A stretch of 39,249 nt of DNA, taken from IMG/VR virus record IMGVR_UViG_2869936548_000010, positions 1 to 39,249 of that record. One strand, 5' to 3'. Below are positions 37,500 through 39,249 of the stretch, piece by piece. Source of the DNA: a virus. Its lineage: Duplodnaviria > Heunggongvirae > Uroviricota > Caudoviricetes. A program made the translations under genes and the position numbers. Numbering within the stretch: the first letter of the stretch is position 1; each line of letters begins with the position of its first letter. The notes under the pieces are model-generated. The model did not search any database, was not told the origin of the DNA, and was given only the letters and a program-made list of their open reading frames with translations.

Positions 37500-37563
37500 A
37501 TTCGTAATGCGAAGGTCGTAGGTTCGACTCCTATTATCGGCACCATTTAAATCAATAAGTTAC
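37500..37563. repeat. attR: second copy of the 64-bp att repeat (partial 3' tRNA-Thr)
   Basis: Identical to 145-208 but lacks the 5' half of the tRNA. Confidence 0.85.
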
Positions 37564-38007
37564 ACATCATTAGTACCTTCCTTATTTCTTGACTGGGACA
37601 AATTTGGGACCGATGGGTTCAGAATCAAGTCTATTTGCCGTGCGTGTTCGGTAAGGTGATTAGGTGCGAGGTGAGCATATCGACGAACCATTTCGATAGA
37701 CTCCCAGCCTCCCATTTCCTGTAACACTGATAACGGGACTCCGGCTTGAACCAGCCAACTTGCCCAGGTGTGTCTCAAGTCGTGAAATCTGAAATCATCA
37801 ATACCAGCCCGTCTCAGCGCCGCTTTCCAGGCTGTGTTTGCGTCATACCGCATCTTCCTTACTGTTGGCGCTTTCGTTCCGTCTGGTTTGGTACAGCTTT
37901 CCTTGTACACAAATACCCAACGGTGATGATTTCCGATTTGTTTTTTCAATACGCGACATGCAGTATCATTCAGCGCAACGCCAATTGCGCGGTTTGATTT
38001 ACTCTCT
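37560..38007 (-). pseudogene. 3' remnant of a second tyrosine integrase, truncated by an IS3-family element
   Basis: Encodes the C-terminal part ([20 protein letters not shown]) of an integrase related to but distinct from 205..1365; stop codon inside the att repeat; 5' part missing. Confidence 0.75.
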
Positions 38008-38050
38008 TTGAGGTGTACTGGCAATAGCGGACACTACCATTTGTTCTTTT

Positions 38051-38869
38051 TTAAGCAGCCATCTGATGATATTTTTCCCTGAAGGCTGCCGGGGAGATAT
38101 TCCCCAGACGAGAGTGACGACGCTGACGATTGTAGAAAATCTCAATGTATTCCCGTATTACTGAGATGGCTTCATCCCGGTTATTAAAACGATAGTGGCT
38201 CAGGCTCTCATTTTTCAGCGTTCCCCAGAAGCTTTCCATCGGAGCGTTGTCGTAACAGTTACCTTTACGCGACATTGATGTTTTCAGACCAGACTGCTCC
38301 TGTATGACCCGGTAATCGTATGCGCAGTACTGTGAACCTCGATCAGAGTGGTGGATTAGCCCGGCAGGTGGGCGCTGGCTCCTGAGCGCCATAAACAGGG
38401 CTTTACCTGTCAGCTCTTTTGTCATGCGCTCTCCCATGGCGTAGCCGACAATTTCGCACGTATAAACATCTTTGATGCCAGCGAGGTACAACCATCCCTC
38501 CTGTGTGGCAACATACGTCAGGTCCGCCACCCAGACCTGATTTGGTGCTGTAGGAGCGAACGTCTGGTTCAGCAGATTTGGCGCAACTGGCAGATTGTGG
38601 TTCGGGTTCGTAGTCGCTCTGAACTTGCGTTTCTGCTTACAGCGTAGCCTTAGCTCCTTACGAAGACGTGCCAGTCGGTCACGACCAACGATGATGCCAT
38701 TCTCTGCCAGCTCCGTCTGGAGCCGCCGGGTTCCATATGTTTCGCGAGTGCGGATATGTGCCACCTTAATCTCCAGTTTTAGCCGCTCATCACTTTGTTT
38801 TCTGTCTGAGGGTTCATGCTGTACCCAGTTGTAATAACCGCTCCTGGATACACCAAATACCTGACACAT
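38051..38869 (-). CDS. IS3-family transposase OrfB (DDE catalytic domain)
   Basis: 272-aa ORF in the -1 frame relative to orfA; IS3-family OrfB-like by recalled similarity. Confidence 0.8.
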   Translation of the reverse strand: MCQVFGVSRSGYYNWVQHEPSDRKQSDERLKLEIKVAHIRTRETYGTRRLQTELAENGIIVGRDRLARLRKELRLRCKQKRKFRATTNPNHNLPVAPNLLNQTFAPTAPNQVWVADLTYVATQEGWLYLAGIKDVYTCEIVGYAMGERMTKELTGKALFMALRSQRPPAGLIHHSDRGSQYCAYDYRVIQEQSGLKTSMSRKGNCYDNAPMESFWGTLKNESLSHYRFNNRDEAISVIREYIEIFYNRQRRHSRLGNISPAAFREKYHQMAA

Positions 38870-38904
38870 CGCTTCAATGGGAAATTGTTGTCGCCATTGT
38901 TCGA

Positions 38905-39249
38905 TTAACGCGTATTTTTCAGCGACTCCTGTGCAAAATACGCTGTTGCTTTTTTTAATATATCTCGCTCAAGGCGAGCTTCATTTAACGCCTTACGCAG
39001 TTGCAGAATTTCAGATTCCAGTTCAGCCAGCGTGCGGGAACCAGGAGTACCGAGCCCTTTTCTGGCGGCGGTAACCCATTGTCCTAAAGTGCCTTCAGGA
39101 AGAGATAATCGGGAAGCGCCTTCACTGATCGAAAGTTGATTTTCAAGAACCGTTCTGACAGCTTCGGCTTTGAACTCTTTAGAGTAACGTTGAACCGCCC
39201 CGGGTTTCCTGGAGAGTGTTTTATCTGTGAACTCAGGCTGCCAGATCAT
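38905..39249 (-). CDS. IS3-family transposase OrfA (HTH)
   Basis: 114-aa ORF ending ...ILKKATAYFAQESLKNTR; the ATG coincides with the window edge, so the true start is uncertain. Confidence 0.7.
   Translation of the reverse strand: MIWQPEFTDKTLSRKPGAVQRYSKEFKAEAVRTVLENQLSISEGASRLSLPEGTLGQWVTAARKGLGTPGSRTLAELESEILQLRKALNEARLERDILKKATAYFAQESLKNTR
38950..38956 (-). other. Slippery A7 run near the 3' end of orfA (candidate -1 ribosomal frameshift site)
   Basis: Minus strand reads ATATTAAAAAAAGCA; a -1 shift here joins orfA to the orfB frame upstream of its ATG. Confidence 0.6.

Follow-up and report, generated by a model that had tools for sequence, protein, structure and literature searches.

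Results

A serotype-converting prophage beside thrW

The window, by which we mean the whole 39,249-nt stretch of DNA that was analysed (IMG/VR record IMGVR_UViG_2869936548_000010), carries the tRNA gene thrW near its left end, an intact integrase gene next to it, and an O-antigen glucosylation operon towards its right end (Table 1). Beyond the operon lie the second copy of an attachment-site repeat, an integrase fragment (hereafter, the stub) and two insertion sequences of the IS3 family.

Table 1 Features of the window, with positions counted from its first letter
Feature	Position	Strand	Details	Basis
thrW, tRNA-Thr(CGT)	115..190	+	single tRNA gene found in the window	ARAGORN
attL repeat copy	145..208	+	64 nt = 46-nt core + 18-nt int-proximal arm	repeat search
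SfX integrase	205..1365	-	intact, 386 aa, HK75/mEpX2-type	ORF; Pfam PF00589
O-antigen glucosylation operon, SfX right end	34656..37210	-		ORFs
gtrX	34656..35921	-	part of the SfX glucosylation operon	ORF
gtrB	35934..36851	-	part of the SfX glucosylation operon	ORF
gtrA	36848..37210	-	part of the SfX glucosylation operon	ORF
attR	37500..37563	+	core 37500-37545 + 18-nt shared arm segment 37546-37563	exact repeat
Older SfII/SfIV/SfI/SfV-type int 3' remnant	37560..38008	-	stop + 149/387 codons, pseudogene fragment	
CTT	38006..38008	.	kept copy of the IS600 3-bp target-site duplication	L002 comparison
IS600 (IS3 family)	38009..39192	-	1184/1263 bp	identity to annotated IS600; Pfam
IS629 (IS3 family)	39191..39249	-	terminal 59 nt, TGAACCGCCCCGGG...	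aligns with L002 7722-7780

Over its last 11.7 kb (27560-39249), the window shows 100% identity to S. flexneri CP020339.1 (L005; comparison records carry L numbers) and 99.97% identity to CP001383.1 (L012), which is serotype Xv strain 2002017 according to Sun et al. 2011 (PMC3306764). Judged by its sequence, the window comes from a serotype X-type chromosome of Shigella flexneri and lies in its proA-thrW-yaiC region; the repeats enclose a 37,355-bp element, which we identify as the serotype-converting prophage SfX. We base the prophage assignment on the identity of the window, on the 421-aa gtrX product (GtrC), which matches the SfX glucosyl transferase L05001.1 at 100% identity, and on the repeat spacing. 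A repeat search over the whole window gave a start-to-start spacing of 37,355 nt, equal to the SfX genome length determined from strain 2002017 (PMC3636060). In L005 the identical gtr genes are annotated with the Pfam families GtrA_DPMS_TM and Glycos_transf_2, the structural genes of SfX in the window are P22-like (IME10-like), and the int region falls within a match to HK75, mEpX2 and HK542, for which an integrase is among the annotated features.

Two further features of the prophage were recorded. The tailspike gene (32828-34589) is present as two overlapping ORFs of 399 aa and 200 aa, split by one additional G in a G8 run (indel at ~33994-34001); L008 has a G7 run and a single 570-aa gene. 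The same split is found in strain 2002017, from which SfX particles are nevertheless reported to be inducible. In the SfX early region, five copies of the 11-nt unit TTGTCCAACGG are arranged in two clusters (9373-9479), and phage relatives of this region have annotated replication protein O and helicase genes. By their sequence, these repeats look like lambdoid origin iterons.

Make-up of the att repeats

The exact 64-nt direct repeat that bounds the prophage (145-208 and 37500-37563) is the sole long direct repeat in the window. In attL, the att core consists of the 3'-terminal 46 nt of thrW (145-190). The published 46-nt att core ATTCGTAATGCGAAGGTCGTAGGTTCGACTCCTATTATCGGCACCA, given for SfI, SfII, SfV, SfX and P22 (PMC3636060), has an exact match in the window at 145 and at 37500, that is, at both prophage ends. 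The 18 nt beyond the core read TTTAAATCAATAAGTTAC and include the int stop codon. This extension is identical in the attP of SfX, SfII and SfV, and has one SNP in SfI and SfIV. Conservation of these 18 int-proximal nt between both integrase lineages is the only reason that the repeat extends from 46 to 64 nt.

The same arm identity explains, with no longer crossover region, why an int stop codon lies inside each repeat copy. As the sequence-only reading had stated, the stop codon of the stub (37560-37562) sits in the repeat just as that of the intact int does (205-207). In the integrases of SfII, SfV, SfI and SfIV the stop codon falls 14 nt past the 46-nt thrW core, and it does so in the stub as well. 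The reading had both integrases end in the same att core; the shared sequence is there, but the core proper is 46 nt long and the stop codon belongs to the 18-nt arm extension. The right border of SfX accordingly belongs at 37545 if drawn at the core, or at 37563 if drawn at the end of the extended identity.

The attR of the window has phage-type arms on both flanks of its core. We compared it with the junction panels of Sun et al. 2011 (PMC3306764), in which attL and attP read ...TTACCTCGCATTTAA << intX, the attB of serotype Y strain 036 reads thrW and then '...TTACACATCATTAGTACCTTC << putative phage int', and the attR of the lysogen 036_X reads 'gtrXA ... core ... TTACACATCATTAGTACC << putative phage int'. 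Window positions 37200-37580 agree with panel E (attR in 036_X), barring a few single-base differences in the PDF text of that figure. The SfX gtrA-side arm is on the left and host-side sequence is on the right, as in 036_X. The junction in panel F has a one-base difference right after the core; it was not used for placing the crossover, as the PDF text of the figure has other single-base errors. In the history proposed below, a new attR of this kind would join the gtrA-side arm of SfX to the int-side arm of an older phage.

A second integrase reduced to its 3' end

Directly after attR, an open frame of 154 codons runs on the minus strand (37560-38024). Its true int-derived part is 37563-38008, which corresponds to 149 of 387 codons (~39%); the first five codons of the frame come from the IS end. 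The stub matches the Pfam family Phage_integrase (PF00589) with an E value of 1.2e-30 and 107 bits (cut-off 27.1), over model positions 57-171 of 172. The 3' end of a second tyrosine integrase, noticed at this place from the letters alone, is thus borne out by the domain match, and its size is slightly above the third that had been estimated.

The stub aligns to residues 235-379 of the intact SfX Int with 61% protein identity and has a stretch of 16 protein letters (not shown) in common with it. With the repeat excluded, the DNA identity of the stub to SfX int is 64% (290/451 columns). Its identity to the int genes of SfII, SfV, SfI, SfIV and phi458 is 97.5-98.7% at the nucleotide level. Over 445 nt there are 7 mismatches to SfIV, 8 to SfI, 10 to SfV and 11 to SfII, and these four are too similar over that length to single out one donor phage.

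These values bear on whether a mis-assembly might have duplicated the int and att of the prophage itself. Such an error would account for att copies that are identical over 64 nt with an int 3' end after each. Outside the repeat, however, the two int sequences share only 64% of their DNA and 61% of their protein, and the fragment is ~98% identical to SfII-type int. The arrangement also recurs in several independent complete S. flexneri assemblies and was confirmed by the PCR and sequencing published for the locus (PMC3306764). We therefore regard a mis-assembly as having practically no probability; the sequence-only reading had named nucleotide identity to part of 205-1365 as the sign of a duplication, and 64% DNA identity rules an assembly duplication out. 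Its remark that the stub shares sequence with the intact integrase and is yet clearly divergent was accurate.

The stub corresponds to residues 239-387 of the integrase reconstructed from L002 (see below). With no more than codons 239-387 of 387 left, it does not amount to a full tyrosine recombinase gene. What is missing includes the TGLRRSN arginine box, with the first catalytic arginine, and the N-terminal DNA-binding domains, so the stub is incapable of acting as a recombinase. By sequence, we place it in the SfII-P22 lineage of tyrosine integrases, as a pseudogene fragment rather than a working member. The correct annotation would be an integrase pseudogene fragment left by an earlier phage of SfII type and lying outside SfX.

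IS600, IS629 and the right flank

IS600 starts at 38009 with the terminal repeat TGAGGTGTACTGG..., which places the boundary between int and IS at 38008/38009. The IS3-family element that had been read as cutting the integrase at about 38008 can thus be named: it is 99.4-99.7% identical to annotated IS600 copies and 99.8% identical to positions 1-1184 of the IS600 in L002. Its Pfam domains are HTH_Tnp_1 in orfA and HTH_21 and rve in orfB. The end downstream of orfB adjoins the stub, and orfB is intact (38051-38869). The first five codons of orfA (from 38905) are missing, and 79 nt, one terminal inverted repeat among them, are absent from the orfA end of the element. Of the two IS600 ends, the window and its genome L005 keep just the one at 38009, and the duplicate of the target site is absent with the other end; IS629 takes the place of that end at 39191, with the TG at 39191-39192 common to both elements. 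As it has lost one end and is fused to IS629, this IS600 should not transpose alone.

Positions 37500-39192 of the window are collinear with L002 (99.9%), after which the alignment jumps by 1,629 bp to a second IS end. In L005 the IS629 is 1305 bp long and extends to window-equivalent position 40495, with TGAACCGCCCCGGG at both ends and with broken ORFs. No target duplication surrounds it in L005 (flanks cgt and gat), and a simple insertion of IS629 into IS600 is unsupported for that reason. We take the name IS629 from the published locus map (PMC3306764) rather than from a reference IS629 sequence.

Beyond IS629, L005 has 96 nt and then the start of yaiC. No further prophage genes are present between the stub and yaiC in L005, and the 5' half of int and xis are gone. 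Extension to the right, which the sequence-only reading had proposed for finding the rest of the IS and any further decayed prophage genes, thus ended with the far end of IS600 lost to a degenerate IS629. The reading's disrupted 5' part is confirmed as to the cut, but the 5' 238 codons are not merely separated: this genome has lost them by deletion along with the left end of IS600.

Two observations were made in passing. Up to window-equivalent position 41707 in L005 (39191-41707), only SfX, the int stub and the two IS elements lie between thrW and yaiC. Within 38905-39249 a chimeric frame begins in the IS629 end (MIWQPEFTDKTLSRKPGAVQ) and continues into IS600 orfA; gene callers applied to identical genomes report it as a 399-aa fused transposase, the start codon of which is the last three bases of the window.

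The int::IS600 junction in sister genomes

When one genome of each species was scanned for the exact int/IS600 junction, two records came up, S. flexneri SFBU1023 (L002) and the E. coli-titled ECMA0423 (L001). Both have the order proB-proA-thrW, stub, complete IS600, int 5' part (241 codons), xis-like and further phage ORFs, and another IS end. In L002 the IS600 occupies 4909-6171 (1263 bp) with CTT on both flanks. This answers the question of a target-site duplication raised from the window, where one copy of CTT is retained. Removal of the IS600 and one CTT from L002 gives an uninterrupted int of 387 aa, with 97-99% protein identity to the Int of SfII, SfV, SfI and SfIV and 55% to that of SfX. 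Since removing IS600 restores an intact frame, the L002 int carried no other lesion. In L001 (CP178302.1), the proB and proA frames (1600-4200) are broken into many short ORFs, which suggests heavy pseudogenisation or a high assembly indel error rate.

In L001, L002, L006, L010 and L011 no prophage separates this junction from thrW, which it adjoins directly; over 1693 nt, L006, L009 and L010 match the window at 100% identity. L004 has the junction as well, there on the right-hand side of another gtr prophage, one of myovirus type. Among 5,426 complete E. coli genomes, the combined attR-int'-IS600 arrangement occurs at 0 places at ≥80% coverage, and 1,286 of the same 5,426 genomes have thrW followed by an intact integrase of the stub's type. 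The stub-type integrase was thus found to be common and its decayed form only in S. flexneri records and one E. coli-titled record (L001).

L003 and L007 carry the same truncated-IS600/IS629-yaiC junction elsewhere, plus a complete IS600 in int. This combination makes IS600 x IS600 recombination a plausible deletion route. In both records (10814-12747) an att core adjoins this int stub; after the core come an Acyl_transf_3 gene (390 aa) in place of the gtr operon and then a 713-nt fragment 98.5% identical to the 3' end of the SfX tailspike gene, a truncated IS600, IS629 and yaiC. This region looks like another decayed podovirus-type converting phage.

The stub itself is conserved at 99.8-100% in six genomes compared (L001, L002, L005, L006, L009 and L010). 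Such conservation, the open frame of 154 codons at 37560-38024 and an attR with phage-type arms on both core flanks could be taken to mean that the stub is kept for a function, either as a truncated Int domain translated from a TTG start in the IS600 end or as an old arm that alters excision of SfX at attR. We consider this highly unlikely. The N-terminal domains and the first catalytic arginine are missing, and the Pfam match begins only at model position 57; the neighbouring IS is equally conserved, so recent common ancestry within S. flexneri explains the conservation; and SfX has been shown both to lysogenise and to be inducible in this background (PMC3636060 and the experiments described in PMC3306764).

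The stub is probably older than SfX

The sequence-only reading held that an older thrW-integrating element had decayed at this site before the current prophage arrived. A tandem layout alone is silent on order, because a second phage can use either att of a resident prophage, and entry of SfI at the attL of SfX has been demonstrated (experiments in PMC3306764). SfX might accordingly have been resident first, with an SfII-type phage entering at its attR and then decaying. Several results argue against this sequence of events. The identical junction (100% over 1693 nt) lies beside thrW in SfX-free strains, gtrII strains included, and the same junction also lies beside a different prophage. The serotype Y recipient 036 had the stub before SfX was introduced, according to the junction data of Sun et al. 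(PMC3306764). SfX is full length here, whereas the other element is down to 445 nt. The reversed order is therefore very unlikely.

Since excision of SfX would regenerate thrW-int', SfX-free genomes alone would be no proof of priority. It is their combination with the junction beside another gtr prophage and with strain 036 before SfX that leads us to place the stub before SfX. The earlier claim thus holds, given the SfX-free sister genomes and the lysogenisation of 036 as published (PMC3306764), and for the window strain itself the proposed order of events draws on comparison and on an equivalent laboratory lysogen.

A mirror-image fossil in gtrII strains

A second att copy is present in L006 (4171-4605) and also in L003, L009, L010 and L011, in which a gtrA-side arm and core are joined to an SfX-type int fragment; all five genomes have a gtr cluster other than that of SfX. 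This fragment is 355 nt long and 98.6% identical to SfX-type int (window 145-563). It is cut by a different, second IS600 in the opposite orientation. L006, L009 and L011 carry gtrII, the product of which is 99.4% identical to the SfII protein, and we read the gtrA-side arm of the second att copy in L006 as that of SfII. The gtrII strains also carry the SfII-type int::IS600 beside thrW.

Since gtrII strains hold both the mirror stub and the SfII-type int::IS600, thrW records at least two rounds of replacement by two integrase lineages. Most simply, the stub in the window would be the remnant of the left end of the SfII-type prophage seen in gtrII strains. The linkage in these strains suggests SfII as the probable donor of the stub.

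With layers of this kind, each retained int-side arm would make the attR of the newcomer a hybrid with phage arms on both flanks, and this could measurably alter excision or superinfection; we think it unlikely that it does. A hybrid attR might also be one reason for the published finding that serotype conversion depends on the order in which the phages infect.

Proposed history of the locus

Taken together, we consider it very likely that the window shows the S. flexneri proA-thrW-yaiC locus with SfX, that the stub is the dead int of an earlier thrW-integrating converting phage of SfII/SfIV/SfI/SfV type, and that events followed the order proposed here. The earlier phage would have integrated at thrW, bringing its int-proximal arm and int directly 3' of the tRNA gene. 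IS600 would then have entered int at codon 238/239, with the CTT target duplication that is seen in the sister genomes. In a third step, an IS-associated deletion may have taken the 5' part of int (238 codons), xis, the remaining prophage and the left end of IS600. Its product would be the structure int'-truncated IS600-IS629-yaiC that is present in the sequence; an IS629-adjacent deletion and IS600 x IS600 recombination would be equally good routes to it. Finally, SfX would have entered by Int-mediated recombination between its attP and the still-intact thrW core. Lysogenisation of the serotype Y strain 036 with SfX gave the attR junction of the window in the experiment of Sun et al. 2011 (PMC3306764).

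As a unit, the stub, truncated IS600 and IS629 make a stable marker within the proA-yaiC region of S. flexneri. Because SfX and SfI insert beside it on arrival, it helps both in delimiting prophages and in tracing past serotype switches. The main value of the analysis is correct annotation, and it holds nothing new on mechanism.

Comparison with known systems

The arrangement at the stub is real, ordinary and already published. The map of Sun et al. 2011 (BMC Microbiol 11:269, PMC3306764) gives the order proA-thrW-'putative phage int'-IS600-IS629-yaiC for 036, 036_X and 2002017. The window has the gene order of this published S. flexneri locus and the same prophage, SfX. The junctions ...TTAC followed by CTCGCATTTAA (intX) and ...TTAC followed by ACATCATTAGTACC (stub) also agree, barring a few single-base differences in the PDF text of the published figure. 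In the map and junction panels of that report, the stub is only a 'putative integrase', with no lineage, no IS600 junction or target duplication and no IS600/IS629 fusion. The lineage of the stub, the IS600 junction with its CTT duplication, the IS600/IS629 fusion and the 46+18-nt make-up of the repeat are the new details added here.

Compared with the integrases of SfII, SfV, SfI and SfIV, the int reconstructed from L002 shares their length of 387 aa, whereas the stub in the window keeps only codons 239-387. IS600 is common in Shigella, and the copy in the window shares its orfA/orfB layout, its HTH and rve domains and 99.4-99.8% nucleotide identity. A complete IS600, as in L002, makes a 3-bp target duplication; the copy in the window is without 79 nt at the orfA end.

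A parallel in terms of process is the laboratory-made serotype 1d strain described in PMC3306764, which carries SfI and SfX in tandem at thrW. In that strain, as in the window, the second phage recombines at an att site of the resident, and both junctions have phage arms flanking the core. The difference is that the earlier element in the window is a 445-nt fossil and not a complete prophage.
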